A stretch of DNA of 64,000 nt from Patescibacteria group bacterium (GTDB taxonomy: Bacteria > Patescibacteriota > Microgenomatia > Curtissbacterales > GWA2-41-24): assembly GCA_038063735.1 (NCBI GenBank), contig JBBTUN010000004.1, forward strand, positions 106,646 through 170,645, read 5' to 3'. Under the pieces are notes generated by a model, which was not told where the DNA came from, did not search any database, and saw only the letters and a list, made by a program, of their open reading frames with translations. The translations under genes were made by a program, and so were the position numbers. Positions 3,874-64,000 of this stretch are shown piece after piece; within the stretch, counting starts at the first letter, position 1, and every line of letters starts with the position of its first letter.

Positions 3874-3876
3874 TAA

Positions 3877-5655: not shown

Positions 5656-5664
5656 AATTAACTT

Positions 5665-41918: not shown

Positions 41919-42279
41919 TTTTTCCGGCTGGTATGTTTTTGTTTACAAAACTGTGGGCGCCAATTATTGCGTTTTTGCCAATAGTTATGTTGGGCATAAT
42001 CGTGGTGTGGCTTCCTATTCTAGCACCACTCTCAATTTTTACCGGCCCTCTTTTATTATCTATTGTAGACTCGGAGTATATAGAACAATGCGAACCAATC
42101 TGTACATCTTCTCCTATAAAAACTCCGTGTTTTGCATTGATATATGTGAAAGCGCCTATATCTGCACCACTATCAATTGTTAAATTCTTTCTGTTTTGGC
42201 ACATCCACTGCCATTTAGTCATACCTAATCTATTAAACTTGGGTTGTTTCCAGTGAACAAAACGCTGTGAGTTCTTCAT
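41884..42279 (-). CDS. Hexapeptide-repeat (left-handed beta-helix) sugar N-acetyltransferase (PglD/LegH/NeuD-like)
   Basis: Repeated [LIV]G-x4 hexapeptides: IGEDVQIGSHCSI…IGSHTTI…IGKNAIIGAHSFV. Confidence 0.7.
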   Translation of the reverse strand: MKNSQRFVHWKQPKFNRLGMTKWQWMCQNRKNLTIDSGADIGAFTYINAKHGVFIGEDVQIGSHCSIYSESTIDNKRGPVKIESGARIGSHTTIMPNITIGKNAIIGAHSFVNKNIPAGKIAFGVPIKIQK

Positions 42280-43418: not shown

Positions 43419-44553
43419 AAAAATGTTTTTGAATTAAATTAAGATGTAAATTAATTTTTTCCAGTATTTTTGCGATTTTCTTACCGCTATGCCCATTGCC
43501 GTAAATATTGTCCTTTTTAAACCTTTTTTTGCCCTTGATTATTTTACTTATAGCAGTCTCTATTCTTAAAGCATCGTAGTCAATATCCACCACGTTACTG
43601 TTTCTTTCTCTGCCTTCCTGTCTAGTACCGACATTAACAACTGGCAACCCAAAGGATGAAGCTTCAATTATTCCGCTGGATGAGTTACCAACAAGAACAT
43701 TCGCAATTCTCAGAGTGTTAGCATAAATTCTTCTGTCCATATTTCTTAAGACTAGGTAGTCTTTTTTCGAACTGAATTTTTCAAGCTCATTGGCAATAGC
43801 GTTAGAACCAGGATCTCCATTAGGATAAATCAAAATTCTCGTGCACTTGATGTTTGATACAGCTTTTAATGTTTCTCTTATCTCTCGCCTTGCTGTAGTC
43901 GGAGATGTTGAAACAGGGTGTTGTAACAGAATTATTAAAGTGTTACCAATTTTGACACCCAACTTCTTAGAGAGTTCACCCTTGCTAATTACAGGTTCGC
44001 TCATAAGTTCATCAAGCCCGGGTGCGCCCACTAAAAATACATTTTTTGGATTTTCTCCCATCCTTAAAATCCTATTCATACTTTTTTTTGTCGCGGGAAA
44101 GTGGAAATGGGCAAGTTTTGTAATAGCGTGTCTTATAGACTCATCAAACCCGGCTTTAGAAAGATCCCCACCGTGGATATGAGCAATTGGGATTGGAATA
44201 AAAGCTGCAGAAACTGCGCAAGCAAGCGCTTCACTCCTGTCGCCACTTAAAACGACTAAATCTGGCTTAAGCCTTAAAAGAATTTTGGTAAATTCTAGTA
44301 TCCCGTTGCCTATCTCGAGACTAACCTTCCCCTCAATCTCTTCGTCTATAACAATGTTTACCTTAGCATCTATTGAAAAACCATCTCTATTAATCAGCTC
44401 GATTGTGGAGCCATATTTCTTAAGAAGATGAACTCCGGAGACAATAAGTTGTAAATCAAGACTTTTAGATTCGCTAATCGCGGTAACTACAGGCCTAAGA
44501 ATTCCATACTCAGATCTTCCGCCAGTAAAAACTGCAATACGTTTCCTTTTCAT
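43405..44553 (-). CDS. UDP-N-acetylglucosamine 2-epimerase, hydrolysing type (NeuC/LegG-like)
   Basis: IAVFTGGRSEYGILRPV N-terminus and GDRSEALACAVSAAFIPIPIAHIHGGD. Confidence 0.7.
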   Translation of the reverse strand: MKRKRIAVFTGGRSEYGILRPVVTAISESKSLDLQLIVSGVHLLKKYGSTIELINRDGFSIDAKVNIVIDEEIEGKVSLEIGNGILEFTKILLRLKPDLVVLSGDRSEALACAVSAAFIPIPIAHIHGGDLSKAGFDESIRHAITKLAHFHFPATKKSMNRILRMGENPKNVFLVGAPGLDELMSEPVISKGELSKKLGVKIGNTLIILLQHPVSTSPTTARREIRETLKAVSNIKCTRILIYPNGDPGSNAIANELEKFSSKKDYLVLRNMDRRIYANTLRIANVLVGNSSSGIIEASSFGLPVVNVGTRQEGRERNSNVVDIDYDALRIETAISKIIKGKKRFKKDNIYGNGHSGKKIAKILEKINLHLNLIQKHFYEKN

Positions 44554-45434
44554 AAGAGCCTATCGCCAATTTTAATTTTTCTTGGCTGCCACTTAGTAAC
44601 ATAAATCGCACCATCTCGGCATTTAACGATAAAACCACCCTTTTTCTTTTTTACAACCTCGCCATTTGCTCCTGGAAAGGTTTCATGCATTTTTCTTGCT
44701 TGCCATATTATTAACTTTTTTTCGCCAAACGTACAAAATGCGCCCGGATACGGCCGGGTTGTTGCTCTTATTAGCTTATCAATTCGGTCTAAACTCCAGG
44801 ACCATTTTATTTTTCCGTCCATTGGTTCTCTAGCTGGCCAATAATTACTCCTAGCCGGCTGCATAATTATTTTTATTGTTCCGTTTTCAATTTGGGGTAA
44901 AACTTTGTTAACCATTATTTTTCCAACAGCAATCATTTTTTTGTAAATACTAGCAGCGTCATCCTTAGAAGTAATCTTCCATTTCATTTGATATACAACG
45001 TCTCCGGTGTCTGCGCCTTCATCCAAATACATAAATGTCAGTCCGGAGACTTTTAATCCTTTTATTATCGACCAGGGTATTGGTGATCTACCCCGATTTT
45101 TTGGAAGAAGAGCCGGGTGAGTTCCAAGAACACCGATTGATGGTAACGTCAGTAATGTTTTTTTAACAATTTGTGAGAGGCCAAAAACCAACATCAAATC
45201 TGGTTTTAGTTTTCTTATCAAACTCACATTTTTATTTTCATTAATGTTTTTAAACCAAAAGTGCGGAATCTTATATTTTTTAGCAAGGTCAGATTGATCT
45301 CTGTAATCAGAGATGTTTTTTGAAAAATCTGGATGGACGTTGAAAACGCCAACTACATCGGCAAGTTTTTTTTCTAAAATCTCGTTCAGGCAGTACCAAG
45401 AGAACTCAATGCTGCCTATATAAACGACTCTCAT
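44550..45434 (-). CDS. Formyltransferase (Fmt-like), probable sugar N-formyltransferase
   Basis: GVLGTHPALLPKNRGRSPIPWSIIKG (HxxLLPxxRG motif). The C-terminal domain is Fmt-like. Confidence 0.7.
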   Translation of the reverse strand: MRVVYIGSIEFSWYCLNEILEKKLADVVGVFNVHPDFSKNISDYRDQSDLAKKYKIPHFWFKNINENKNVSLIRKLKPDLMLVFGLSQIVKKTLLTLPSIGVLGTHPALLPKNRGRSPIPWSIIKGLKVSGLTFMYLDEGADTGDVVYQMKWKITSKDDAASIYKKMIAVGKIMVNKVLPQIENGTIKIIMQPARSNYWPAREPMDGKIKWSWSLDRIDKLIRATTRPYPGAFCTFGEKKLIIWQARKMHETFPGANGEVVKKKKGGFIVKCRDGAIYVTKWQPRKIKIGDRLL

Positions 45435-45436
45435 AA

Positions 45437-46099
45437 TTAATCATTTCTGGCGTATAAAATTGAAAAAACTTCTGCATATTTATACCCGGATCTTAGACCT
45501 CTTTCCGAGGCAAGTATCGTTAACCCTTTTAAGGATCTGGGATGAGGGTATTCTTTTAATTCTGATTTGTAAAAACTCATAACCTCCAGCTTATTTTTAA
45601 AATTTAAAGAAATGTTCTCGAAGTAATTAAAAACCTGCTTGTTACTTTTTATTTCCGAAAAATTTGTTGTGACTGGAATCTCATAGCTAATAATCTGTTT
45701 AACTTCACTTCCATTCCATGGTCTAACAACGGAAAGAACATTACCGGTCACAATTTCATGGTCCAAATGGCAATCGAAAAGCGGTGGCGTGTAAATAACC
45801 TCGGCCCTTGTTGACTTGACTGCATTTGAAATTGTATCGGCTATCTCAAGTTGAGGATAACTGGAAAGAGAAGCTGCTTTGAACTTAGCATTAATAACTT
45901 TCCGAAATCCATAATAACTCCCAACTTTTTTTATCTCCTTTTTTTTTGCAGTTATATAACGGGCATCCCATTTCGGAGTAAAAGCGCGAGTCACAATGAG
46001 CCAGGACAAGCTATGGCCGCGAGATGAAAGTTTTGAGAGAGTTCCCCCCATTCCTATTGTCTCATCATCTGGATGAGCAGAAATTATAAGAATATTCAT
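45437..46099 (-). CDS. PIG-L/LmbE family N-acetyl-sugar deacetylase
   Basis: LIISAHPDDETIGMGGT signature. Confidence 0.7.
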   Translation of the reverse strand: MNILIISAHPDDETIGMGGTLSKLSSRGHSLSWLIVTRAFTPKWDARYITAKKKEIKKVGSYYGFRKVINAKFKAASLSSYPQLEIADTISNAVKSTRAEVIYTPPLFDCHLDHEIVTGNVLSVVRPWNGSEVKQIISYEIPVTTNFSEIKSNKQVFNYFENISLNFKNKLEVMSFYKSELKEYPHPRSLKGLTILASERGLRSGYKYAEVFSILYARND

Positions 46100-47208
46100 T
46101 CGACCATTTCTGAAGTAATTTCTTGGTCGGCGACAACAGAAGTTTTCAAATTCTTGTCCAGTAACTGTTCAAAGTCCATCGGTGATTGTCTGCCACGAGT
46201 TCTTTTAGGAATAAGCAAGTCAATAGTGACCTTGTCTCCTTCGGCCATATCATTCCTTGCCCTGACAGCTTTTCTAAAAAACTCTATATTATTTACCTCA
46301 GATGGTTGTACTTTTTTTACTCCATCGCCAAGTGCTTCGGGGTGTTTTATTTCTTTTGAAGGGGATGATTCGGCTTCTCTTATTAAATTAACCATTTCAC
46401 GAAACTCTTCTGTATTAAGAGAAGCTCTATGGTCGGGACCGTCCATTTTCTTGTCGAGTGTCATATGTTTTTCAATAGAAACCGCTCCAAGTCTGACTGC
46501 ATCTGCCGGTACAATCATGTCGTCGCCGTTATCGGAAAATCCCACCAATACACCATATTTTTGAGAAAGCTTTTCTTTAAATGTTTTAATAACATCGAGG
46601 TTTTGTTCTCGTGTAGGAGTAGGATAAGAAGATGTACAGTGGTAAACAAGGATCGTGCCTTCAAAACCATGTTCTTGTAAAAATACTAGGGATCTCTCAA
46701 CGTCTTCAAGTGTTCCACCCCCTGTTGAAAGGAACAATGGCTTAGATTTTAAATCAGGATGTTTTGCGATCTTATATAATAAAAGTCCGTTATTTAAATC
46801 CGGAGACGCAATTTTAATTACAGGTAAGTTTAATCTGGCTAATATATCTACACTTGTCAGATCGTGGGGTGTAGCATAGAAAATTATCCCCTTCTGCCAA
46901 GAATATTGCTGTAGTTGGACAAGTTGGTCTTCTGAAAGTGAAAGTTTTTTTAACATCTCGCGTTGGCTTTCGCCTTCGCCAGTGGTCTCTTTTTGGTAAT
47001 TCCCTTTGGATGCATCCTTAGTTGCAATCTCATCCGGGATAAAAATCTGAAATTTGACAGCGTCTGCGCCGACAGCTTTTGCTTGATCAATAAGTTTTCT
47101 TGCCAAATCCACTTGTCCATTGTGATTGACACCTGCTTCTGCAACGATAAAGCATGGTTGGCCAATTCCTACAGACTTATCCCCAATGCTTATATTTTGT
47201 CTTTTCAT
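46096..47208 (-). CDS. Nonulosonic acid synthase (NeuB/LegI/PseI family) with a C-terminal SAF domain
   Basis: GQPCFIVAEAGVNHNGQ and AVKFQ motifs. About 370 aa. Confidence 0.8.
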   Translation of the reverse strand: MKRQNISIGDKSVGIGQPCFIVAEAGVNHNGQVDLARKLIDQAKAVGADAVKFQIFIPDEIATKDASKGNYQKETTGEGESQREMLKKLSLSEDQLVQLQQYSWQKGIIFYATPHDLTSVDILARLNLPVIKIASPDLNNGLLLYKIAKHPDLKSKPLFLSTGGGTLEDVERSLVFLQEHGFEGTILVYHCTSSYPTPTREQNLDVIKTFKEKLSQKYGVLVGFSDNGDDMIVPADAVRLGAVSIEKHMTLDKKMDGPDHRASLNTEEFREMVNLIREAESSPSKEIKHPEALGDGVKKVQPSEVNNIEFFRKAVRARNDMAEGDKVTIDLLIPKRTRGRQSPMDFEQLLDKNLKTSVVADQEITSEMVE

Positions 47209-47246
47209 ATCGACGACATTGTAATTAATTGTTTAGTCAAATACAA

Positions 47247-47954
47247 TCAACCCTTTTTATATGCAAATAAAGCTCTGGCTATGTTTAGGTCTTCCATATC
47301 ATCTACGTCAATTGATTCTAACTTACTAGTAAGAATGTAACCAGACCGATTTTTAGCAAAAGGATACCTAAGCGCTTTTTTAATAAAATCCTTCTTATAA
47401 ACGTACAAAACGCCATCTATTTCATAATTCTTATCAAAATCTTGTCCACGGATTTTTGAAAAATCATTTGCATAGATAAACTCCAATAGTTCTTTGTTTA
47501 TTTTAAGAATCCAGTTAGAAGGGAATTTAGTTTGTTTTACAGAAAATATTGCGTCAAGCTTATCCCAATTCCCCCAAAGCTTTTTAATGCCAGAGATGAT
47601 GGTAGTTGCTGATCTAAAAGGGGAAGTGGGTTGTAACAAGACTACCGTGTCGAATCGCACCCCTTCCTCTTCCAGTGCCTCAACAGAATGTTTCAAAACG
47701 GACAAGGTCGAAGATTTGTCTTTAGCATGTTGGTTAGGTCTTTTTATAATCTTTGCTTCATACCTGGTAGCAGTTTGAGCAATTTCTGCATCATCTGTAG
47801 AAACATAAATCCGACTAGGGAAGTACTTAGAGATTTTGGCAGATAAAATAGTGTATGCAATTAACGGTTTACCATCGATATCTACGACATTTTTTTTAGG
47901 AATTCTCTTCGATCCACCCCGCGCAGGAATAATTGCAATGGCACGGTGTTTCAT
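47247..47954 (-). CDS. CMP-nonulosonic acid synthetase (acylneuraminate cytidylyltransferase, NeuA/LegF family)
   Basis: AIIPARGGSKRIPKKN N-terminal signature. Confidence 0.8.
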   Translation of the reverse strand: MKHRAIAIIPARGGSKRIPKKNVVDIDGKPLIAYTILSAKISKYFPSRIYVSTDDAEIAQTATRYEAKIIKRPNQHAKDKSSTLSVLKHSVEALEEEGVRFDTVVLLQPTSPFRSATTIISGIKKLWGNWDKLDAIFSVKQTKFPSNWILKINKELLEFIYANDFSKIRGQDFDKNYEIDGVLYVYKKDFIKKALRYPFAKNRSGYILTSKLESIDVDDMEDLNIARALFAYKKG

Positions 47955-47960
47955 AAGTAA

Positions 47961-49244
47961 TTATTCTTCAATATCTTTGCTCTTCAATATTCTAGGGATG
48001 GGAAGAGGAATTATAAAATCACCTCGGAAACCATTTTTTTTAATTTTAGGAGCCAACTCATCTGCAATATGCCATGATAAAAGAAGTGCATAATCCGGTT
48101 GGTCGCTATAAAGCCTATCTTCATCAAGAACGGGAATTACAGTACCAGGGACGTACTTACCAATCTTATGTGAACCTTTTATTTCTAAAACACAATCCAA
48201 AATACCATCATCAATTCCAACGTAATTTATTAGTGTACTGGCTCGTGACGGGGCCCCGATTCCATAAATAACCTTATTTTGTATTTTTAATTTTTCCAAA
48301 AGGGACATGATCTTAAGTTTTGATAAAGTCACTTCTTTTTGGAATCTAATTAAATTTGCTTTATTAGTAACCGCAGCTTTCTCTTTCTTAAGCATATCCC
48401 CAACACTCTTCCCAATTTTTCGAGTGTCTTTCTTGGCAGCGTATACTCTGATTGAGCCACCGTGAGACGGAATGTTTTTTGCATGAAATACCTCAAGCCC
48501 ATGCATAGCAAGGAGATACTTTAAACTGTGGAGTGAATAATATCTCATATGTTCATGATAAATAGTATCATATTGTAAAGTTTTAATTAACGAATAAAGA
48601 TAATGAGACTCAGATATAAATACACCGCCTGGTTTTATGAGTCGAATAATATTTTTCAAAGCTTCATGAATATTTTCCATATGTGCAAAAACATTTGTGG
48701 CAGTGACGACTGTCGCTTTTCCTCTAGTTTTGATAATTTTATCAACAACTTTTGCAGTAAAATAATCTATTATAGTATCAATCCCTTTTTTAACCGCGAG
48801 TTTCCCAATTTCTTCGGGTGTTACCCCGAGAACTTTATGCTCATTAACAAAGTTAGAAAGAAGATTTCCATCATTTGATCCAATGTCTACAATCAAATCC
48901 TCACTTTTAAGTGATAGTAATTTTGAAGATTCGCGATATAATTCCTCAAAATTTTCTCTTAAAACCCTCGTGGTGCTACTCGTGTAAGGGTATTCTGGAG
49001 GGAATAAAATTTTTGGATCAACGATAAGTCCAAGCTGGACTAGATGACATTTTCGACAGTACAACCATTGAGCAGGGTAGCTGGGTTCCTCAGACGGTCT
49101 AGTGCCAATCTTTGGCATCGTGTTGACAGGGGGCAAGTATCCTAGAAAAAGGATAGAGGATAGTTTAGGGTTTTCACATATTTGACATTTTTTTACCACC
49201 ACGCTGGAACCGGTACCAAAAGCAAAGGAAGAATTCTTAGTCAT
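47961..49244 (-). CDS. Putative sugar C-methyltransferase (Zn-ribbon Methyltransf_13 N-domain + SAM MTase, TylCIII/NovU-like)
   Basis: CQIC…CRKC zinc ribbon, a DIGSNDGNLL SAM motif and a C-terminal Methyltransf_14-like region. Confidence 0.55.
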   Translation of the reverse strand: MTKNSSFAFGTGSSVVVKKCQICENPKLSSILFLGYLPPVNTMPKIGTRPSEEPSYPAQWLYCRKCHLVQLGLIVDPKILFPPEYPYTSSTTRVLRENFEELYRESSKLLSLKSEDLIVDIGSNDGNLLSNFVNEHKVLGVTPEEIGKLAVKKGIDTIIDYFTAKVVDKIIKTRGKATVVTATNVFAHMENIHEALKNIIRLIKPGGVFISESHYLYSLIKTLQYDTIYHEHMRYYSLHSLKYLLAMHGLEVFHAKNIPSHGGSIRVYAAKKDTRKIGKSVGDMLKKEKAAVTNKANLIRFQKEVTLSKLKIMSLLEKLKIQNKVIYGIGAPSRASTLINYVGIDDGILDCVLEIKGSHKIGKYVPGTVIPVLDEDRLYSDQPDYALLLSWHIADELAPKIKKNGFRGDFIIPLPIPRILKSKDIEE

Positions 49245-54410: not shown

Positions 54411-56090
54411 ATGAATTTTTCTAAAAGGATACCTTTCGTATTTATTATTTCGACACTTTTTGTTAGTTTTGCCTTAAGGTTTTATGCATTAGGTCAAGTG
54501 CCGAATGGTTTGTCGCCAGATGAAGTTGATGTCGGCTACAACGCTTTTTCTATAATCAAAACTCACAAAGATGTCTACGGGAGAGCCTTCCCGCTATTTT
54601 TCCAATCACTTGACGACTATAAAGCTGGGCTTCCGATATACCTTTCGGTAATCGGTATAAAATTGTTTGGATTATCAGATTATTCAATAAGAGCGATCCC
54701 GGCACTTTTTGGCGCACTTACCCCGATTCTATTTTTCTTTTTTGCCAAATTGCTTTATCCAGAGAAGAAAAAATTTCCTTTTGTCATAATGATTTTAGCC
54801 ACATTTGAACCTTGGGGTATAGCAATTTCAAGAGCCATGATTTTTTACTCGGAATATGTCTTTTTGTGTTTACTAGTTTTAATTACATTTTTAATAGGTA
54901 TGAAAAAAAATATGAAGAATGTTTTATATGTCTCAGGAGCACTTTTGGGCCTTACGCCTTACGTTTATTATTCGTCATTTATTTATATGCCGCTTCTCTT
55001 TGTAGCAGTAAGTTTAATTTATAAGGATTTTATATTTAAAAATTTAAAGACTTGCACTATTAGCTTATTGTTTGTTCTTGTTGTTTCTTTTCCGGCCATA
55101 TCTCTTTACTTAAATCCTCAAAACAGAAACCGTTTTAACGCAATTTCTCTCTTTAATCCAGATACCACTTTGACGCTTTCCATAAAAGAGCAGACGAGCG
55201 ACATTGAAGAAAAGTTACCTTTTTCCGGCTATGTTCATAATCGCAGAATTATTTATGCAAGCGCATTCCTTGATAATTACTTCGATTACTTCAATTTAGA
55301 TTATCTTTTTGTTAATGCAAAAAACATACGTTATTTTTATACAAACTATGTCGGTCTTTTTTACCTTTTTGCTATACCCTTCTTTTTGTTTGGTCTATTT
55401 AAAATAATCACAAGAAGGAAAAAAGATGACTTATTCATTTTAGCTTTAATTATAATCGGACCTATTTCAGCAGCTGTCACACTTGGCTCACCCTTTCCCC
55501 ATCGTGGACTGCTTTTTTTGATAGGAGTTCAAGTCGTTTGTGCGCTTGGACTAACTGCTTTTTTTGATAATTTCTTAAAAAGAAAGCAATGGCAATATAA
55601 AGCCGCAATCATTCTTATAATTTTTGCTTATTTTTTAAATGTGTACTTTTTCATTCACCAATACTTTATTCATTCACCACAAGAATTTAACGCTGAAAGT
55701 AATAACGGAGCTTGGTTTGCAACTGTTAGGGACGTTATGCCATTTGTAAGAAAGAATAAATCCAATTACGAAACTATCATATTTTCGTGGTCTTACAGAA
55801 AATTAGTCCCGGGAGTTTATTACGCATTTTATAACAAGACATCACCTTTTGTTTTTCAATCCAAGTCTGCTCTTTGGACTAACGAACCACCATCATATAG
55901 GCAAATATACGATAAGATCGAAAACATTGAATTCAGACCAATAGATTGGGAAAACGACAAAAGCAGAATTAAAACACTTTTGATCGGATACCCGGAAGAG
56001 TTTCCTCCTGACGTAAAAAATGTGGTTAACAAAACATACTTACCCAATGGTCAAATACATCTCCTTTTTGTTGAAGTGAAAAAAGACTAG
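54411..56090 (+). CDS. GT-C family glycosyltransferase (PMT/ArnT-like)
   Basis: LSPDEVDVGYNAFSIIKTHKDVYGRAFPLFF loop-1 motif, highly similar to the 2191/5665 paralogs. Confidence 0.65.
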   Translation: MNFSKRIPFVFIISTLFVSFALRFYALGQVPNGLSPDEVDVGYNAFSIIKTHKDVYGRAFPLFFQSLDDYKAGLPIYLSVIGIKLFGLSDYSIRAIPALFGALTPILFFFFAKLLYPEKKKFPFVIMILATFEPWGIAISRAMIFYSEYVFLCLLVLITFLIGMKKNMKNVLYVSGALLGLTPYVYYSSFIYMPLLFVAVSLIYKDFIFKNLKTCTISLLFVLVVSFPAISLYLNPQNRNRFNAISLFNPDTTLTLSIKEQTSDIEEKLPFSGYVHNRRIIYASAFLDNYFDYFNLDYLFVNAKNIRYFYTNYVGLFYLFAIPFFLFGLFKIITRRKKDDLFILALIIIGPISAAVTLGSPFPHRGLLFLIGVQVVCALGLTAFFDNFLKRKQWQYKAAIILIIFAYFLNVYFFIHQYFIHSPQEFNAESNNGAWFATVRDVMPFVRKNKSNYETIIFSWSYRKLVPGVYYAFYNKTSPFVFQSKSALWTNEPPSYRQIYDKIENIEFRPIDWENDKSRIKTLLIGYPEEFPPDVKNVVNKTYLPNGQIHLLFVEVKKD

Positions 56091-56091
56091 A

Positions 56092-57768
56092 TCAGTCTAT
56101 TACCCCCAGTACATCAATATAGGGACCTGGTCTTATGAGTCTAAAATATGGGAATATTGCTGTTGTGTCAAAAAGAGCCTCGGGGATATCGGTATCGTAG
56201 ATCTTGCTCCCAGTAGGACTAAAATGTGCAACCAGCCTGTAACGTTTCGGATCAAGCTCTAATAATCTGTCCGAAGATGAATTGTAATTGTCAATAACAA
56301 TTCTTGAGTTGCTTATTAACAAAGCTTTATTTGTATAATTTACCTTGCTATCGCCTGCTGTAGAAATTGCGTTAGCATACATTATATCTCTAACGTTGTC
56401 GGCATATGTATTCCCACTAAGTTTTGCAGCTCTTCCATAATATCCCGGGTTCATCTCCTGCACTTTTTTTATAACAAGCGCATTCGGAACATACCCATAA
56501 TACCTGTGAGACGTAGCTACGAGCGGGGTGCTCTTTTCTATATTCTGGTCCAACCATTGTCTTATAAGATCATAGGTCGATGTTTGAACAAGAACCAAGT
56601 TAAAATAAACAGAATTAAAAAAAGTTAAAATCATAACAATCACAAAAAACAAGTGTCTATATCTGACTCGTAGTACAAATTCATAAAAAACATATCCGGC
56701 CAACACTGGTAAAAAACAAAAAGAAATCAATAAATAGCGACTAAGGGGGGGAAAAAAAAGAACCCATATTAAAATATTTATAACAAAAAAAAGTATAAAA
56801 GCCCGATGTATCCCGTGCTTTTTGTATTTTGTAAGTGCAAAAATCACAAAAAAAAGAATGATAATTGGATCTGTAAAAAAAACATTAAGAATCGACTTGC
56901 CAGCGTTTAAAAAAGAATTTAGGTCCGTTATATTTAACTTAACCAATTCAACGCTGTCCGACCGGTTTGTCGGATCCAAAATTCGAAATACTTTTGACCC
57001 TAAACTAACTAAATTTAGAACGAATACAATCATGGTATAAAAAGTTAGCCCGGCAAGTAATCCTCTAATATATTTTTTAATTTTAAGTTCAGAAAAAAAA
57101 ATGATTAGGCAAATAAGTAATGCGCTCATCGCCCCAAACTGATGGAAACCAAAGGAAACAGCGCTAAAAAAAAATGAAACTAACACATACTTTGGGAACT
57201 TGTTTTTGGTTTTTACGGCTTTTACTGCCCAGTAAACAGCAACTATTGAGAAGAAAACTGCTTCTGACCAAGGTCTTGCTTGATGTGAAATTAAGACAAG
57301 ATTATATGAGGCAGCTGTAAGTAGAGAGCTAAATAATGCGACTTCCTTTTTATAAAACAGTAGTCTAGCAAGTTTATAACTAACCAATATTGCCAAAACA
57401 CCAAATAATGCCGAAATAACCCTAGGTATAAATAGAAAATATCCTTCGTGAGTTACTATCAGAAATTCTAAATCAGAAATAGAATGAATCTTGCCAGTGA
57501 TAAATAAAACAAATGATGCAAGAGCTATGAATGGAATTTGAAGATAGGCACCTAAAGGACCGTAGTTTCCTAAGGTAAATAGTGTTTTGCTAGCAAGCAT
57601 ATTAAGAGCGCTAAGGTGGTAAACAGCTTCATCACCCGAAGCATATAATATTGGAAAACCAATAGTTAAATTAATTGTTCTTAACAATAAACCAATTGCA
57701 ATGATAAAAAGAAGCAAATATTTATCTGGAATATTGGTAACAATACTCTTCAAACTTTGAAACAACAT
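56092..57768 (-). CDS. GT-C family glycosyltransferase (ArnT/PMT-like). Contains a G7A8 homopolymeric tract.
   Basis: ILYASGDEAVYHLSALNML loop-1 DE motif. About 12 TM segments and a roughly 170-aa C-terminal soluble domain. Confidence 0.6.
   Translation of the reverse strand: MLFQSLKSIVTNIPDKYLLLFIIAIGLLLRTINLTIGFPILYASGDEAVYHLSALNMLASKTLFTLGNYGPLGAYLQIPFIALASFVLFITGKIHSISDLEFLIVTHEGYFLFIPRVISALFGVLAILVSYKLARLLFYKKEVALFSSLLTAASYNLVLISHQARPWSEAVFFSIVAVYWAVKAVKTKNKFPKYVLVSFFFSAVSFGFHQFGAMSALLICLIIFFSELKIKKYIRGLLAGLTFYTMIVFVLNLVSLGSKVFRILDPTNRSDSVELVKLNITDLNSFLNAGKSILNVFFTDPIIILFFVIFALTKYKKHGIHRAFILFFVINILIWVLFFPPLSRYLLISFCFLPVLAGYVFYEFVLRVRYRHLFFVIVMILTFFNSVYFNLVLVQTSTYDLIRQWLDQNIEKSTPLVATSHRYYGYVPNALVIKKVQEMNPGYYGRAAKLSGNTYADNVRDIMYANAISTAGDSKVNYTNKALLISNSRIVIDNYNSSSDRLLELDPKRYRLVAHFSPTGSKIYDTDIPEALFDTTAIFPYFRLIRPGPYIDVLGVID
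56745..56759. repeat. Homopolymeric tract GGGGGGGAAAAAAAA (G7 then A8) inside the CDS 56092-57768. It encodes FFPP on the minus strand.
   Basis: Seen directly. It is the longest G/C run in the 64-kb window, and the genome is about 30% GC. Confidence 0.8.
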
Positions 57769-59023
57769 ATTTTAATTCAACTTTTCCGATTCCAGGATAA
57801 ACGCCCATCCAAAAACCATTGCTCATAATCTTATCACTAAATTTTAGATTTCCAACCACCCTATGTTTTATTTTGCAATATGCTGGATGACGCAATAAAT
57901 TTCCTGCAAAAAGACTTCTAGTTTCTATTTTGTTACTTTGCAAATAATTAACTATCGCTAGCCTATTAAATGGTGCGTTGTCTCGAATCGCCAACATAAA
58001 TCCAAACCAACATGGATCAGATTTAATATCCCACTTCGGCAGAACAAAAAAGTTATCAAATTTCTTAAGTTCCTCGTATAGAAACTGGTGGTTTTCTTGT
58101 CTTGCTTTGATAAAACCGGGGAGCTTATCAAGCTGTGCGACTCCTATTGCAGCCTGAATGTCTGTAGCCTTTAAATTAAATCCAATATGTGAATATGTAT
58201 ACTTATGGTCATATCCATAAGGTAACTTGCCAAGTTTGAAAGAAAACCGTCTACCACACCTGTTATCCTGACCTGTCCTGCACCAGCAGTCTCGTCCCCA
58301 CTCGCAAAAGGAATTTACAAGAACATGTAAATCGGGGTTACTGGTAACAACAGCTCCGCCTTCCCCCATTGTTATTTGATGGGCAGGGTAAAAGGAAAAA
58401 GTGCCTATGTCCCCAAACGTAGATACATAACGGCCGGCAAACTTTGAACCCAATGCGTCACAGCAATCTTCAATAAGCCAGAGTCCGTGCTTCTTGGCAA
58501 TTTTAGCTACTTTCTCAGCGTCAAATGGATTCCCGAGGGTATGGGCAAGTATTATAGCCTTCGTTTTGTTTGTGATCGCTTTTTCGATCATTTCAACTTC
58601 AGCGTTTCTTGTTTCAAGGTTAACGTCAACAAAAACAGGTACAGCGCCAAATTGAATGATTGGGTTTACTGTTGTAGGGAAAGAGCAAGCTGCCGTGATA
58701 ACCTCGTCCCCGGGTAAAATTCTCCTTTTGCCAAGTTTTGGAGAAGTCAACGCATAAAAAGCGGCTAAGTTGGCGCTTGAACCGGAATTTGTTATAGTCA
58801 CTAACTTTACGCCCAAAAAATTTCCTAATTTTTTGCAAAACTCTTCAGCATAATGACCTTCAGTTAACCAAAATTCCAATGATGCCTCGACAGCCTTTTC
58901 AATTTCATTATGATCAAAGACACGTCCTGCAACTTTTACAGGAGTGACCCTAGGAATAAATATCTGTTTTTTATGATTTTCGGTATAATACCTACGAATA
59001 AATGCCTGAAGCTGTTTGTCCAT
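57722..59023 (-). CDS. CDP-4-keto-6-deoxyhexose 3-dehydrase (E1; RfbH/DdhC/AscC family of the DegT superfamily)
   Basis: The N-terminus resembles RfbH (…ASLEFWLTEGHYAEEF…NSGSSANL). The exact E1 [2Fe-2S] spacing C-X57-C-X1-C-X7-C is present: DCC…(57)…CWCRTGQDNRC. Confidence 0.7.
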   Translation of the reverse strand: MDKQLQAFIRRYYTENHKKQIFIPRVTPVKVAGRVFDHNEIEKAVEASLEFWLTEGHYAEEFCKKLGNFLGVKLVTITNSGSSANLAAFYALTSPKLGKRRILPGDEVITAACSFPTTVNPIIQFGAVPVFVDVNLETRNAEVEMIEKAITNKTKAIILAHTLGNPFDAEKVAKIAKKHGLWLIEDCCDALGSKFAGRYVSTFGDIGTFSFYPAHQITMGEGGAVVTSNPDLHVLVNSFCEWGRDCWCRTGQDNRCGRRFSFKLGKLPYGYDHKYTYSHIGFNLKATDIQAAIGVAQLDKLPGFIKARQENHQFLYEELKKFDNFFVLPKWDIKSDPCWFGFMLAIRDNAPFNRLAIVNYLQSNKIETRSLFAGNLLRHPAYCKIKHRVVGNLKFSDKIMSNGFWMGVYPGIGKVELKYVVSKFEEYCYQYSR

Positions 59024-59064: not shown

Positions 59065-59997
59065 ATGAAAAAAATAAGTATTGTTACCCCCCTCTTTAAC
59101 GAAGAAGAAAATGTCAAAGAGCTTTATAAACAAATAAGCGATTTGATGGCAAAAGAAAAAAACTATCAATTCGAAATTATAGCGGTTGAACACGGTTCAA
59201 GCGATTCTACGTTCAAAATCTTAAAATCCATACGCAAAAAAGATCCAAGGCTGAAAATTATTCAACTTTCTAGAAATTTCGGTAATGTTGATGCAGCAAT
59301 TAGCGCCGGACTCAATTTTTCAAGCGGGGATGCAGCTGTGATTTTAATGGGAGACCTACAAGAACCACCCGCACTCATTTCGAGTTTCTTAAGAAAGTGG
59401 GAAGAAGGTTACGAGATTGTATACGGAACGATTAAAAAAAGAGCAGATAATTCACTTATTCGTAAATTTAACTCCCTACTGTTCTATAAAATATTAAGGT
59501 TTGCAACCGGAAAAATGTTTCCTGAAAATGCGTCAGATTATAGGCTTGTCGATAAAAAAGTATACGAGGTGATAAATAGCATGGGGGAAAGAAACAAATT
59601 CCTTAAAGGACTAACATTCTGGACTGGCTTTACTCAAATTGGTATCCCATACAATAGATCGCCGAGATTTGCTGGCGAGTCTAAAGCAGATTTCATTACT
59701 GTGCTTAAGGTAGCCGTAAATGGGATATTATCATTTTCCTACATACCGCTAAGGCTAGTGACAATATTGGGGTTTGTACTTGCAATAGCTTCTTTCTTCA
59801 TACTGTCTTTAGAAATCATTTTATTTTTAGCCTTGGGTAGAGAAGCAAAAGGAGTTCTAACAATTGTAGTTTTAATTAGCTTTTTGTTTGGCATGTTATT
59901 TGTGATCCTTGGTGTTATTGGAGAATATATTGCCAGAATTTACGACGAAGTTAAGCAAAGACCAATTTATATAGTCAAGAAAAAAATTGGTATCTAA
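59065..59997 (+). CDS. GT2 polyprenyl-phosphate sugar synthase with C-terminal TM helices (ArnC/GtrB-like)
   Basis: SIVTPLFNEEENV…IIAVEHGSSDST…DLQEPP motifs. Two hydrophobic helices at the C-terminus. Confidence 0.7.
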   Translation: MKKISIVTPLFNEEENVKELYKQISDLMAKEKNYQFEIIAVEHGSSDSTFKILKSIRKKDPRLKIIQLSRNFGNVDAAISAGLNFSSGDAAVILMGDLQEPPALISSFLRKWEEGYEIVYGTIKKRADNSLIRKFNSLLFYKILRFATGKMFPENASDYRLVDKKVYEVINSMGERNKFLKGLTFWTGFTQIGIPYNRSPRFAGESKADFITVLKVAVNGILSFSYIPLRLVTILGFVLAIASFFILSLEIILFLALGREAKGVLTIVVLISFLFGMLFVILGVIGEYIARIYDEVKQRPIYIVKKKIGI

Positions 59998-60635
59998 GAA
60001 GACAAGTGCCCAATGTTCACCATTCTGACATAGGATCTATCGGCAACACCATTAGCACTTTTAGGAAGCTTCACCCACTTAACATCTCCGTTTACAACTG
60101 TCTCCATAAGAGGTATTTTCCTCACAGTTTTAAATCCGCAACGTTTATAAAGATTCACTGCTCTTACATTATCATTAAATGTTATTAAATAGAGCCTGTC
60201 TATATTTAAATTTTTAAAACCCCAACTGACTAAGGTGGTAACACATGTAGTCATCAGCCCAGGAATATTTTTTAAACCTCTCACGACATTATCTAACTCG
60301 CATGAGTTATCCCTTCGTCTGTACCTATAAAAACCTAGATGCCCATAAAACCTACCGTACTCATCCTCAATTGCGAACAAAATCCTGTCCTGATTATCAA
60401 TGACTAAATCCTTTAACCATTTTTTTGTCCTTTTGACAGTAACTTTAAACGTGTCACCAAACCAGAAAGCCTCCCTCCTTCTCCACAAAGCTATATTCTT
60501 TATAAGAATTTTATTTTCAACATCTGCATTGTTTATTACGCGAAGAAAAATTATTATTGAGTGAATTTTGCCAACTTTAATAACAAATTTAGGCCTCTTC
60601 TTCAGAGCGTTTATTTTACTTGAATAATGAGACAT
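59994..60635 (-). CDS. GNAT-family N-acetyltransferase-like protein
   Basis: 213 aa. The C-terminal NVRAVNLYKRCGFK is a GNAT motif A/B-like region. Confidence 0.5.
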   Translation of the reverse strand: MSHYSSKINALKKRPKFVIKVGKIHSIIIFLRVINNADVENKILIKNIALWRRREAFWFGDTFKVTVKRTKKWLKDLVIDNQDRILFAIEDEYGRFYGHLGFYRYRRRDNSCELDNVVRGLKNIPGLMTTCVTTLVSWGFKNLNIDRLYLITFNDNVRAVNLYKRCGFKTVRKIPLMETVVNGDVKWVKLPKSANGVADRSYVRMVNIGHLSS

Positions 60636-60646
60636 TAATTTAGAGC

Positions 60647-61756
60647 TTATTTAGTTAGCTTGCGGACTAAACAGTCTGAAATATAATTTACTTGTTCTTC
60701 CGTAAGATTCACACCACTTGGAAGATTAATACCATTTAGGCCAAGATGATGGGCGACAGGTGTGTTAATTTCCTTATACATAGGAAACATGCTAACCGGA
60801 TAGAAAAATGGCCTTGTGTCAACGAGCTGTTTAGCCATTGCCCTCATTAATTGATCGCGGGTATATTCAAATTTTTTGTCTAAAACAATAGATGACATCC
60901 ATTTATTTGACCTAGTATTTGTTTTGTCAGGATTCATGGATATTCCTCCTAATTTGCCAAGTTTGCGAGCATACCATTTAAATATTTTATTCTTTCTTCT
61001 GACAAACTCCTCAATACGCTCAATTTGAGCCAGTGCGAGGGCTGCTTGGATATTGGACATGTGATAGCTATATCCCACCCGTATTTGCCAAAATTTTCGC
61101 TTCGGATCTTTTCCATGCTCGTTTAGCATTCTTGCTTTGTCCAAATTCTTTTTGCTATTTGTAACGAGCATCCCACCAATTCCAGAAATAGCTATTTTTG
61201 CCCCCTGAAAGCTATATGCTCCAAAATCTCCGAATGTGCCAGGCTTTTTCCCCTTATATATAGAGCCTAATGCTGGAGCAGCATCCTCAACTACATAAAG
61301 TCCATGCTTTTTCGCTATGTTCATAATCTCATCCATCTCACAAAGATTTCCGTACATGTAAACAGGCATAATAGCTTTAGTACGGCTACTGATAGCCTTT
61401 TTAATTTTATCTGGGTCAATGCACCATGTGTCTGGCAAAACATCTATAAAAATTGGTTTTGCTCCAAGACGCATAACTACATCGGAAGCTGCGTAAAAAG
61501 CTAAATCAGGCAAAATAACTTCATCCCCCGGCTTGATATCCAAGCAGGCAAGTGCAAGTTGCATAGCGCCGGTCGCCCCAGACACAGCCATTACGTATTT
61601 GGAACCAATATAATTTGCAAATTTTCTTTCAAGTTTTTCTTTGTAATCAAACATATGATAATTCCACCCGTTAGTGACTGCATCATTTACATAATTAATT
61701 TCTTTTTGAGTAATAGAAGGGCCAGCCGTTAATATCATCCCGTGTGGTCTATACAT
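60647..61756 (-). CDS. DegT/DnrJ/EryC1/StrS family PLP-dependent sugar aminotransferase
   Basis: 369 aa with family-typical organisation: GDEVILPD…AIMPVYMYG…GGMLVTN. Confidence 0.8.
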   Translation of the reverse strand: MYRPHGMILTAGPSITQKEINYVNDAVTNGWNYHMFDYKEKLERKFANYIGSKYVMAVSGATGAMQLALACLDIKPGDEVILPDLAFYAASDVVMRLGAKPIFIDVLPDTWCIDPDKIKKAISSRTKAIMPVYMYGNLCEMDEIMNIAKKHGLYVVEDAAPALGSIYKGKKPGTFGDFGAYSFQGAKIAISGIGGMLVTNSKKNLDKARMLNEHGKDPKRKFWQIRVGYSYHMSNIQAALALAQIERIEEFVRRKNKIFKWYARKLGKLGGISMNPDKTNTRSNKWMSSIVLDKKFEYTRDQLMRAMAKQLVDTRPFFYPVSMFPMYKEINTPVAHHLGLNGINLPSGVNLTEEQVNYISDCLVRKLTK

Positions 61757-61778: not shown

Positions 61779-63581
61779 CTATAAGTTATTTTCAGCAGTT
61801 GATTTTACAATCATATTGGATTCTAGCTCCTTGGGCAATAGCAAAGGAAAAAGATCCTCATATGGTCTGGATACCATAGAACCGTCCGCCCGTTTCACCG
61901 AATGAATTCTAGGCACAACCAATTGCCAATGCCCTGACCTAACGTCACACAATACTGGGCCAGGATAAGAGAGTACTTGTTTTATCTTTTTGTCGATTTC
62001 TCGAGTGTTGTTAATTCTTATTCCACGAATTCCATAAGAGCTAGCTATTTTCAAAATATCTGGAAACCACAATCCCGTTTTTGGGCTCTCACCCATGAGT
62101 CGACCGGCCATATGTGTTTTTTGAGTATGTCTAATTAGCAAATAGCCATTATTGTTAATGACAAAAATTTTAATAGGCAAATTGTTTTGCTTTACTGTAG
62201 CCAGTTCTTGAATATTCATTTGTAAACAGCCATCCCCCGTTACAACAATCGTTCTTTTACCTCCAGAAGCTATACATGCTCCTACGCTACTTGGCCAGTA
62301 TCCCATTGTTGAAATTCCTCCTGTCGTGATAAACCTTTGACCCTTTTTTAAATTCCACGTTTGGCAAACAACATGAAATGGGGAGCTGGTATCAACAACT
62401 ATGGTGTCACGATCGGATGCAAATTTAGATAACCGTTCTGTAAAGTAATACGAATTTACTAGAGCCTCTCTTTTGTAATGGGGCAAAACCATAGGATATT
62501 TTTTTCTCCAGGAAGCACATACACGAGTCCAATTATCAAAGCCTGGAAGCCTCTTTCTATTGATAGATTTTAGTAGTTTTTCAAGAAATACTTTTACGTC
62601 TTTATTTATTTTAAAGTCGATATTGATACCTGGTTTATTTAATTCGAAAACATCTATGTCGACTACAATTTTTTTTGCATGTCTACCCCAATCCTTAGCA
62701 TCATAACCAATAATACCTGTATCAAGCCTTGTTCCCAGGCAGATAATTAAATCGGCATTTTGAATAGCAAAATTTGCAGCTCGCTCTGGGTATAGTCCCG
62801 GCCTGCCAACAAAAAGTGGGTTAGTGCTTTCAATAAGGTCAATGCCAAGTCTTGTTGTTTCAACTGGAATTTTTAAAGTTGAGACTACTTCTTTAAAAAG
62901 TTTCTCGGCCATTCCTGTTCTAATGCCCTGACCAGCCAAGATAAGTGGTCGGCGTGATTTATAGATTATTTCCAAAACTCTGTTTATCTCCTCACTGGAA
63001 ATTTCAGCTATTTTAGGAAATTTTGGTTCAACAAATTTTTGTAAAAGCTTTTCGGGAACTTCCATCCTTTGAATGTCCAGTGGTACCTCTATCCATACAG
63101 GACCGCGCCTTCCAGACATCGCCCAAAAATAAGCCTCCTCCATGTAATGCTTAACACTTGCAGGGTCATCTATTGTTTTAAAGTACTTGGTTACAGATTT
63201 GGCAATTGGTGCGATGTTAATCCCTTGAAGGCCGAACTGCCTAATTTTTGTTTCCTGCATATAAGAAACCGTAGAGTGTGATGATTGCCCGGAAATGACC
63301 AGCATAGGGGCAGAATCTACATACGCGCCAACAACCCCATTTAAGACATTTATTGCTCCCGGGCCTGCCGTTACCATAGCCACACCCATTTTCCCACTAA
63401 TTCTGCCATATGCTTCAGCCGCCATTCCGGTCGCTTGTTCATGATGATTGAATACAGGTTTAATTTTTTTATTTCGAAAGACCGCATCATTTAAAAACAT
63501 TGCCTGTCCGCCAGTAACCATAAACACAGTGTCAACTCCTCTGCTTTCCAAGAATTTCACAATGTAGTCAGATACAGTCAT
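61779..63581 (-). CDS. Thiamine-diphosphate-dependent enzyme of the acetolactate synthase/YerE family
   Basis: 600 aa. N-terminal TPP_enzyme_N (GVDTVFMVTGGQAM…HHEQATGMAAEAYGR), a central domain and a C-terminal TPP-binding domain (GDGCLQMNIQELAT). Confidence 0.75.
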   Translation of the reverse strand: MTVSDYIVKFLESRGVDTVFMVTGGQAMFLNDAVFRNKKIKPVFNHHEQATGMAAEAYGRISGKMGVAMVTAGPGAINVLNGVVGAYVDSAPMLVISGQSSHSTVSYMQETKIRQFGLQGINIAPIAKSVTKYFKTIDDPASVKHYMEEAYFWAMSGRRGPVWIEVPLDIQRMEVPEKLLQKFVEPKFPKIAEISSEEINRVLEIIYKSRRPLILAGQGIRTGMAEKLFKEVVSTLKIPVETTRLGIDLIESTNPLFVGRPGLYPERAANFAIQNADLIICLGTRLDTGIIGYDAKDWGRHAKKIVVDIDVFELNKPGINIDFKINKDVKVFLEKLLKSINRKRLPGFDNWTRVCASWRKKYPMVLPHYKREALVNSYYFTERLSKFASDRDTIVVDTSSPFHVVCQTWNLKKGQRFITTGGISTMGYWPSSVGACIASGGKRTIVVTGDGCLQMNIQELATVKQNNLPIKIFVINNNGYLLIRHTQKTHMAGRLMGESPKTGLWFPDILKIASSYGIRGIRINNTREIDKKIKQVLSYPGPVLCDVRSGHWQLVVPRIHSVKRADGSMVSRPYEDLFPLLLPKELESNMIVKSTAENNL

Positions 63582-63586
63582 CTAAT

Positions 63587-64000
63587 TTATATTAATGCTT
63601 CAATTGGGTTTTCTCTCTCTATGGCGCTTTTTTTCTGTTTTAGGTTTGCCGCAATATCCACAATTATATCTTCTTGGCCAGCCACTATCTTCCTTCGCCC
63701 CAGTTCAACAAGTATGTCTCGGGCATCCACACCAAATCTTTTCGCAGCCATTCTAGCATGTGGAGCAAATCCACTAAAAACTCCGGCAAGTCCACTCGTA
63801 AGGCTGATGGCACTTATTTCCTGCGGTTTTTTCATAATCTTTGCGGTTATCTTTTCGCTATTGTCCATAAGTTTAAAAAGATCAAGATCTAATTTGTAGC
63901 CCTTCCTCATTAGAACGGCAACGATTACTTCAAGCTGACAATTACCTGCGCCTGCCCCCAACCCCCTAGATGTAGTGTCGATTATCTTAGCACCAGCCTC
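63587..64000 (-). CDS. 4-hydroxy-2-oxovalerate aldolase (DmpG/MhpE/BphI family), C-terminal part. The gene continues beyond the window end.
   Basis: The frame is open to position 64000. It has GLGAGAGNCQLE and DARDILVELGRRKIVAGQEDIIVDIA, matching the DmpG catalytic-domain end and the DmpG_comm domain. Confidence 0.65.
   Translation of the reverse strand, partial: EAGAKIIDTTSRGLGAGAGNCQLEVIVAVLMRKGYKLDLDLFKLMDNSEKITAKIMKKPQEISAISLTSGLAGVFSGFAPHARMAAKRFGVDARDILVELGRRKIVAGQEDIIVDIAANLKQKKSAIERENPIEALI

Follow-up and report, generated by a model that had tools for sequence, protein, structure and literature searches.

A DmpG/BphI-family aldolase in a Patescibacteria glycan locus probably helps supply the side chain of a C-branched deoxysugar

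The DNA analysed here is a stretch of 64,000 nucleotides (nt) from an uncultivated Patescibacteria-type bacterium, most likely of the Microgenomates group (assembly GCA_038063735.1, contig JBBTUN010000004.1, positions 106,646 to 170,645), referred to as the window throughout, and the analysis concerns an aldolase gene that extends past its end. What the window holds of this gene, at 63587..64000 on the minus strand, is a single open frame of 137 residues with its stop codon at 63587-63589. These are residues 211-347 of 347, the N-terminal 210 lying beyond the window end, and translation, Pfam, NCBIfam and a longer contig (L001 8952-9995, introduced below) identify them as the C-terminal third of an ErwI-like class II pyruvate aldolase of the DmpG/BphI family. 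A first-pass annotation of the window had called the fragment DmpG-type from its DmpG_comm domain and a GLGAGAGN motif, and the call holds: GLGAGAGN is found at fragment residues 13-20 (63941-63964) and the DmpG_comm string DARDILVELGRRKIVAGQEDIIVDIA at fragment residues 92-117 (63650-63727), and Pfam and NCBIfam agree. The DmpG_comm 'communication' domain (PF07836; 63635..63820, minus strand) aligns fragment residues 61-122 with profile positions 2-63 of 63 (E=3e-28; 97.6 bits against a cut-off of 27), the end of an HMGL-like barrel is recognised by Pfam (E=1.6e-7), and the NCBIfam model TIGR03217 (4-hydroxy-2-oxovalerate aldolase) pairs fragment residues 1-123 with profile positions 211-333 of 334 (E=2.7e-45). 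The DmpG-type match of the fragment is far above chance. In DmpG and BphI the communication domain is the part that touches the dehydrogenase partner.

The gene immediately downstream of the aldolase encodes a 600-residue thiamine diphosphate (ThDP)-dependent protein that is present on six public contigs. Contig L001 (Logan ERR3858120) is identical, with 0 mismatches, to the final 6627 nt of the window and adds 9581 nt past its end, bringing the total stretch examined to 73.5 kb (the 64-kb window plus the 9.6-kb extension). The complete aldolase gene lies at L001 8952-9995 and encodes 347 residues. The full protein scores 409.8 bits on TIGR03217 (cut-off 286) and thereby passes the family threshold, and its best solved homologue is DmpG (1nvm; E=3e-82 over residues 5-331). 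The catalytic residues Arg17 and His21 and the metal ligands Asp18, His200 and His202 (DmpG numbering) are all kept; they were read from L001, outside the window, and are invariant in 81 relatives. The aldolase is thus shown to be a member of the DmpG/BphI class II pyruvate aldolase family with its catalytic and metal residues intact.

The extension also supplies the other half of the operon. Directly upstream, at L001 8077-8955, is a DmpF-like dehydrogenase gene (292 residues), the last 4 nt of which are shared with the aldolase start; its product, an acylating acetaldehyde dehydrogenase of the DmpF/BphJ type, passes TIGR03215 (362.7 bits, cut-off 282), is matched by DmpF-type structures with E=5e-85 to 8e-63 and keeps the Cys in ISCGGQ. 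Followed in the reading direction of the aldolase, L001 carries two epimerase-family genes with a family 2 glycosyltransferase (GT2) between them, then a DegT gene, an ABC-2 permease/ATPase pair and a methyltransferase on the opposite strand, and after these a glucose-1-phosphate cytidylyltransferase-like gene (RfbF-like), an NDP-hexose 4,6-dehydratase (RfbG-like), the DmpF-like gene and the aldolase. Back in the window, the ThDP gene (61779..63581, minus strand) begins 5 nt past the aldolase stop and is assigned to a YerE/JanthE-like carboligase by its TPP_enzyme_N/M/C domains, structural homologues and spacing. It is followed after 22 nt by a DegT-family sugar aminotransferase gene (60647..61756, minus strand; 369 residues, with the pyridoxal phosphate lysine in SFQGAK; PF01041 E=2e-106, perosamine synthase 3bn1 E=1e-82) and after a further 11 nt by a GNAT acyltransferase gene (59994..60635, minus strand; 213 residues), which matches Acetyltransf_3/4/1 (Pfam), shows a weak PseH match and probably encodes a sugar N-acetyltransferase. 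The result is a co-directional run, RfbF-RfbG-DmpF-DmpG-ThDP enzyme-aminotransferase-GNAT, with gaps of -4 to 22 nt. Past the GNAT gene come a convergent ArnC/PgfS-like GT2, an E1/RfbH gene and a GT-C glycosyltransferase. The neighbours named in the first-pass annotation, a ThDP enzyme and sugar aminotransferases, are borne out by the three-domain ThDP gene, the DegT gene and the gene of the RfbH/E1-type protein. Its alternative, that the aldolase marks the boundary to an unrelated operon, is excluded, because annotation of every large open reading frame (ORF) makes the whole 64 kb a glycan locus and because sugar genes continue on L001: past 64000 stand the DmpF-like, 4,6-dehydratase, cytidylyltransferase-like, methyltransferase, ABC-2, DegT, epimerase and GT2 genes.

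The E1 gene (57722..59023, minus strand) encodes a CDP-6-deoxy-4-hexulose 3-dehydrase, which would form the 4-keto-3,6-dideoxy sugar used as acceptor. Against the RfbH model NF011936 (cut-off 423) the protein reaches 663.9 bits; it carries the iron-sulfur motif C188-X57-C246-X-C248-X7-C256 and has a His in YPAHQ. A C-X57-C-X-C-X7-C iron-sulfur motif and a His replacing the pyridoxal phosphate lysine are the hallmarks of E1, and the window E1 is genuine.

The same gene combination recurs widely. A scan with one genome per species returned 80 loci, the nearest genomic relatives, with aldolase identities of 52-82%, spanning Patescibacteria, Omnitrophota, Micrarchaeota, Altiarchaeia, Clostridia, Paenibacillus, Pedobacter, Flavobacterium, Legionella, Bdellovibrionales, Nitrospirota and others. 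In a phmmer census of these loci, a DmpF-like dehydrogenase is adjacent to the aldolase in 77 of the 80; a ThDP enzyme is encoded no more than 3.5 kb away in 73, a number that rises to 75 when the whole locus is counted, and most of the exceptions are short contigs. Single-linkage family clustering over 81 loci gave corresponding counts (aldolase 81, dehydrogenase 78, ThDP enzyme 75, RfbF 46, ArnC-like GT2 37); RfbH-, RfbF- and RfbG-like genes are frequent in the related loci, with E1 linked in about half. Three further metagenomic contexts show the dehydrogenase-aldolase-ThDP triad within sugar loci, and the sequences most similar to the full aldolase, at 67-97% identity, belong to Curtissbacteria, Daviesbacteria and other Patescibacteria.

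Two observations concern the taxonomy of these records. Many bins titled 'uncultured Gammaproteobacteria bacterium' (CAY/CAZ accessions; L007, L009, L015, L021, L022 and others) have loci near-identical to contigs from Curtissbacteria or other Patescibacteria, with L007 matching L004, and the taxonomy in those record titles looks unreliable. The cassette also occurs, together with RfbF/G/H, in bins assigned to Micrarchaeota (L029, L041, L048) and Altiarchaeia (L047) at 56-62% aldolase identity, suggesting either inter-domain transfer or mis-binning.

The identity of the ThDP enzyme connects the aldolase to sugar branching. Its best solved homologue is JanthE (8rph; E=2e-115, 35% identity), with PpYerE (5ahk; E=8e-66) and plant and bacterial acetolactate synthases well behind. 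JanthE is a YerE-like aldehyde-ketone carboligase that takes 4-hydroxy-2-oxovalerate among other donors in vitro (PMC12188165); its physiological substrates are reported as unidentified, and its gene neighbourhood is not mentioned in that literature. The JanthE gene was located in Janthinobacterium sp. HH01 (L144, AMWD01000002.1, 6805-15782), where the gene order is RfbF-RfbG-E1-JanthE-SDR-DmpF-DmpG-SDR (SDR, short-chain dehydrogenase/reductase). The locus of JanthE (8rph, 8rpi, 8rpj) thus has RfbF, RfbG, E1, a DmpF-like gene and a DmpG-like aldolase as at the window, the aldolase being 51% identical to ours; it differs in the two SDRs that accompany JanthE, and JanthE itself has an unusual CDG ThDP motif where the window enzyme has GDG. 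Among relatives of the window ThDP enzyme whose biochemistry and structure are characterised, the nearest therefore sits in the same cassette, which suggests a physiological donor for JanthE and, more fully, 4-hydroxy-2-oxopentanoate and CDP-4-keto-3,6-dideoxyhexose as its natural substrates. The window ThDP enzyme is the predicted user of the aldolase product. A plasmid search with the ThDP enzyme for an annotated cultured example returned only ordinary acetolactate synthases at no more than 32% identity.

Some Patescibacteria loci encode two YerE-like ThDP paralogues, scoring ∼850 and ∼500 bits against the window enzyme (L006 (11071-14637), L008, L013, L014, L016, L018, L033). In several of them the second paralogue adjoins a reductase of the SDR family that we call Red284, which may mean two branched sugars or one that is doubly modified.

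In BphI the C4 configuration of the product is set by two residues, Leu87 and Tyr290. We aligned the 81 sugar-locus aldolases with DmpG (1nvm), 8ih7, NahM (NAH7), the Parageobacillus pNCI001 aldolase and Klebsiella MhpE, the last three taken together with their catabolic neighbour genes. All five catabolic aldolases have Leu88 and Tyr291 (DmpG numbering; Leu87 and Tyr290 in BphI), whereas the sugar-locus aldolases carry Phe (54), His (24) or Leu (3) at position 88 and Phe (79) or Val (2) at position 291. The window aldolase has Phe at both sites, the second being Phe285 in GVFSGF, placed by gap-free alignment to DmpG (codon 63776..63778, minus strand), and the HH01 aldolase has His88 and Phe291. 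Two further replacements, Asp53 to Asn and Ser293 to Gly, are consistent across the sugar-locus clade. BphI is strictly 4S; the Y290F exchange by itself removes this stereocontrol, and combined with a second exchange, as L87N/Y290F or L87W/Y290F, it leaves an enzyme that cleaves the 4R substrate only (PMC3962088). The sugar-locus clade, with a bulky aromatic or polar residue at 87 and Phe at 290, would be the natural counterpart of this engineered switch, and since both residues that enforce 4S in BphI are replaced in the window aldolase (Leu to Phe, Tyr to Phe), its product is probably 4R. Phylogeny, which the first-pass annotation had proposed as a check against DmpG and BphI, agrees with this division: the five catabolic aldolases split from all of the sugar-locus ones in 100 of 100 neighbour-joining bootstraps. 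The replacements at 88 and 291 offer a simple sequence marker for biosynthetic versus catabolic members, and the clade points to natural 4R-selective pyruvate aldolases, which are of biocatalytic interest.

An intermediate signature, Phe291 with Leu88, is found in the aldolase of a DmpF/DmpG pair on Streptomyces parvulus plasmid pSPA1 (L088, 7126-10871). This pair lies in a nonribosomal peptide synthetase cluster with a methyltransferase and an FAA-hydrolase-family protein; here the family probably has a third use, in building an amino acid.

A characterised precedent for such a cassette exists in Pectobacterium atrosepticum SCRI1043, where ErwI (BphI-like) and ErwJ (BphJ-like) are encoded beside ErwE, ErwF and the CDP-4-keto-3,6-dideoxyglucose genes (Steitz et al. 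2022, PMC9306805). ErwE rejects pyruvate; its donor is 4-hydroxy-2-oxopentanoate, of which it picks the R enantiomer and joins it to a ketone standing in for the sugar. The order deduced for erwiniose is conversion of acetyl-CoA to acetaldehyde by ErwJ, aldol addition with pyruvate by ErwI, branching by ErwE and reduction by ErwF (PMC9306805). The window shares with the erwiniose cluster an aldolase and dehydrogenase beside a YerE-like ThDP enzyme and deoxysugar genes, and the 4R product predicted above would fit the preference of ErwE for the R acid. The two differ in gene order (ThDP-reductase-dehydrogenase-aldolase there, dehydrogenase-aldolase-ThDP here), in what follows the ThDP gene (an aminotransferase and GNAT here, whereas an ErwF-type reductase belongs to the erwiniose cluster) and in the host, which here is uncultivated.

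Taken with the operon structure and the recurrence of the triad, this analogy makes it likely that the aldolase and dehydrogenase run in the biosynthetic direction and make a four-carbon side-chain donor for an erwiniose-like C-branched deoxysugar. In the first step the dehydrogenase would reduce acetyl-CoA to acetaldehyde and hand it on through an inter-subunit channel, and in the second the aldolase would add the pyruvate enolate to give 4-hydroxy-2-oxopentanoate, probably 4R. The ThDP enzyme would then decarboxylate this keto acid and join the C4 unit to C-4 of CDP-4-keto-3,6-dideoxyhexose, so that the sugar would gain a tertiary alcohol bearing a 3-hydroxybutanoyl branch. Finally, the branch would be tailored and the sugar probably transferred to polyprenyl phosphate by the adjacent GT2 and installed by GT-C enzymes. 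The suggestion in the first-pass annotation of a sugar side chain for which the aldolase joins pyruvate with acetaldehyde thus gains support from its match to the erwiniose pathway.

Other branched-sugar systems share parts of this scheme. In the yersiniose A pathway of Yersinia pseudotuberculosis (YerE/YerF) a ThDP enzyme likewise puts an acyl branch on C-4 of CDP-4-keto-3,6-dideoxyglucose from RfbF/G/H-type enzymes, but its donor is pyruvate, the branch has two carbons and no aldolase is needed. Closer in logic are MMAR_2331/MMAR_2332 (caryophyllose, Mycobacterium marinum) and MygI/MyGE (gastriose), in which an aldolase-made hydroxylated 2-oxo acid is coupled by a YerE-like enzyme to a deoxy-keto sugar; these pathways differ in their longer C6-C7 side chains, and MMAR_2331 belongs to the aldolase/citrate lyase (HpcH/HpaI-type) family and not to the DmpG type. 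The aldolase-dehydrogenase-ThDP logic for long C-branches is therefore already known, having been published in 2022, and is not a new principle. What is added here is the completed gene and its operon structure, the assignment of a wide clade to the pathway, a two-residue signature predicting 4R and a possible amino-tailored variant. The label '4-hydroxy-2-oxovalerate aldolase' suggests aromatic catabolism, which would be misleading in organisms of minimal metabolism, and identification as a side-chain supplier corrects the annotation of a large clade that includes ultra-small bacteria and DPANN archaea.

An aldolase of the HpcH/HpaI type, the type tied to caryophyllose through MMAR_2331, lies near the DmpG-like and ThDP genes in 13 loci (among them L021 11023-11784, L031, L036, L056, L070 and L084), often between them; two aldolases may thus cooperate in these loci to extend the side chain. 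Split transketolase genes, encoding the N-terminal and the pyrimidine/C-terminal halves, accompany the cassette in seven loci (for example L058 7193-8017 and L037 14818-15750) and could provide another two-carbon transfer in side-chain assembly.

Several points weigh against the proposed pathway. The direction, substrate and stereochemistry of the locus enzymes are all inferred. JanthE takes pyruvate too (PMC12188165), so the donor preference of the ThDP enzyme is not readable from homology alone. ErwI (WP_011093013) was likened to the window aldolase by its published description, with the Janthinobacterium aldolase (51%) as sequence proxy, and the catabolic set used for the stereochemical comparison is small, at five sequences only. 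On the acceptor side, Pfam annotation of all large ORFs and a search for 2Fe-2S and FAD motifs found no gene in the 73.5 kb for an E3 reductase, from which E1 usually receives its electrons. An E3-like ORF was picked up by a crude motif search in only 1 of 86 related loci (L057), so its absence is typical of the cassette. The nucleotide carrier is probably CDP, and the models behind this assignment miss their cut-offs: a cytidylyltransferase model is the best match of the full-length RfbF-like protein, yet reaches 267.7 bits where 300.25 are required, and the 4,6-dehydratase falls below cut-off for both the dTDP and the CDP models and is ambiguous between them. Because both models are missed, the carrier is probable rather than shown. 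Lastly, no ortholog in the role of ErwF/YerF, the branch ketoreductase, was found in the window and extension, the best candidates being generic SDRs of 21-31% identity. Without such a reductase, the product may be an undescribed variant.

Elsewhere an SDR reductase usually comes after the triad (Red284 in 26 loci, with other SDRs after the aldolase in further loci), whereas here the aminotransferase and GNAT come after the ThDP gene where the branch reductase is usual. These two families stand beside the ThDP gene in 10 of the 81 loci, nine of which are without Red284; family clustering revealed one amino-type locus (L004/L007) that also bears a Red284-family SDR. Score thresholds had initially given 24 reductase-type and 8 amino-type loci with 0 carrying both, and the strict exclusivity this implied was abandoned when clustering found L004/L007. 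At 9 of 10, with ∼2.4 co-occurrences expected by chance, the exclusivity is not significant alone.

As the branch carbonyl is the sole ketone left after ThDP coupling, one reading is that this carbonyl is transaminated and N-acetylated. Here and in about one-tenth of related loci, transamination and N-acetylation of the branch would then replace the erwiniose-type ketoreductase step, and the product, starting from the 4R-hydroxy keto acid, would be a 3,6-dideoxy-4-C-(1-acetamido-3-hydroxybutyl)hexose on the envelope of ultra-small Patescibacteria and some DPANN archaea. We put this forward tentatively, as a possibility that is on balance doubtful. Such a compound would be a nitrogen-bearing C-branched sugar absent from the literature consulted and, if the aminotransferase and GNAT do act on the branch, it would be a new sugar on episymbiotic bacteria, whose surface chemistry is almost unstudied.

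For the tailoring step only, there is an account that explains the data at least as well and towards which we lean slightly. If the aminotransferase and GNAT instead divert the shared NDP-4-keto-6-deoxyhexose to a separate 4-acetamido-4,6-dideoxy sugar, the branch would stay a ketone or be reduced by some SDR of the locus, which encodes at least 10 of them. The nearest solved relatives of the aminotransferase are indeed C-4 aminotransferases (perosamine synthase, E=1e-82), and a metagenome scan found relatives of 41-50% identity in loci without ThDP or DmpFG genes, several of them beside RfbF/RfbG-like genes. In an unbootstrapped neighbour-joining tree the window enzyme groups with these ThDP- and DmpFG-less loci while the aminotransferases of the loci ordered ThDP-GNAT-DegT form a separate clade, which leaves the window enzyme no specialised branch-aminotransferase clade of its own. 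The amino-type locus that retains a Red284-family SDR points the same way. Against a separate sugar stand the position of GNAT and aminotransferase at the ThDP gene in 10 of 81 loci, nine of them lacking the usual reductase, and the availability of the branch carbonyl as the only remaining ketone. The same tree also counts against it, since the aminotransferases of these loci fall on two separate branches and the association of ThDP enzyme, aminotransferase and GNAT therefore seems to have arisen twice.

A broader departure would keep the 4-hydroxy-2-oxo acid and give it another fate, either as a 3-hydroxybutyryl unit, made with it by the ThDP enzyme, that the GNAT would put as an N-acyl group on the amino sugar formed by the adjacent aminotransferase or, from a longer aldehyde (for example one derived from propionyl-CoA), as a C5 branch. 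The aminotransferase and GNAT directly after the ThDP gene and the failure to find a branch reductase in the window and extension would suit the former; for the latter, BphI takes propionaldehyde besides acetaldehyde (PMC3962088), and the residue at position 90 is Ile, similar in size to Leu. We nevertheless consider this fate improbable. The ThDP enzyme is clearly related to the ketone-accepting carboligases JanthE and YerE and scores equally high against the ThDP enzymes of reductase-type and of amino-type loci, E1, which makes the classical acceptor, accompanies the cassette both in the window and in roughly half of its relatives, and formation of an acyl donor needs an oxidative step that nothing here supports.

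That the genes are an ordinary catabolic DmpFG pair, cleaving 4-hydroxy-2-oxovalerate from aromatic or steroid meta-cleavage and merely abutting the sugar locus, is very improbable: TIGR03217 and TIGR03215, both built for that role, are passed and the DmpF-like gene foreseen by the first-pass annotation for a catabolic operon does adjoin the aldolase, but the hydratase and hydrolase genes it expected alongside are lacking, as annotation of the large window ORFs and the extension found no hydratase, meta-cleavage hydrolase, dioxygenase/ring-cleavage or decarboxylase gene in the 73.5 kb (such catabolic partners lie next door to the aldolases of NAH7, pNCI001 and Klebsiella mhp), and the aldolase gene is translationally packed between sugar genes, shares its triad with 73 of 80 relatives, has its nearest relatives in Patescibacteria, separates from the catabolic sequences in every bootstrap and carries Phe and Phe in place of the 4S-determining Leu87 and Tyr290 of BphI. 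With DmpG/DmpF (Pseudomonas CF600, 1nvm) and BphI/BphJ (Paraburkholderia xenovorans) the pair shares fold, catalytic Arg and His, metal ligands, communication domain and a Cys-bearing partner at 42-45% identity; the differences lie in the opposite physiological direction proposed here, the catabolic operon, Leu88/Tyr291 and the separate clade.

Two of the remaining genes beside the cassette may serve to install the branched sugar. The convergent GT2 gene (59065..59997, plus strand) encodes a glycosyltransferase of the ArnC/PgfS polyprenyl-phosphate type (PF00535; NF047588 PgfS 243 bits and PRK10714 172 bits, both below cut-off) that probably attaches the completed sugar to a lipid carrier. A GT-C (PMT_2/ArnT-like) membrane glycosyltransferase gene (56092..57768, minus strand; PF13231 E=9.5e-7) overlaps the end of the E1 gene, and its product is a candidate for the transfer from that carrier. 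The rest of the locus holds many GT1 and GT2 enzymes, RmlC/RmlD-like genes, a NeuB-type nonulosonic acid cassette, a sugar C-methyltransferase and ∼10 SDRs. The GT-C (PMT_2/ArnT-like) genes, at 680-7251, 37279-38787 and 54411-57768, number at least eight, four of them in tandem, and are joined by several large membrane-sized ORFs without Pfam matches; for a genome that is probably small, so many genes devoted to surface glycosylation are exceptional. The nonulosonic acid cassette (40491-47954, minus strand) comprises a CBS-domain dehydratase, a hexapeptide acetyltransferase, a DegT aminotransferase, a UDP-GlcNAc 2-epimerase-type enzyme, a formyltransferase, a PIG-L deacetylase, NeuB and a CMP-sugar synthetase; the presence of a formyltransferase and a deacetylase hints that the N-acyl pattern is unusual. 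Next to it, at 47961-49244 on the minus strand, the sugar C-methyltransferase (Methyltransf_14/13, TylC3-like) probably makes a methyl-branched sugar as well, a second kind of C-branching in the same locus.

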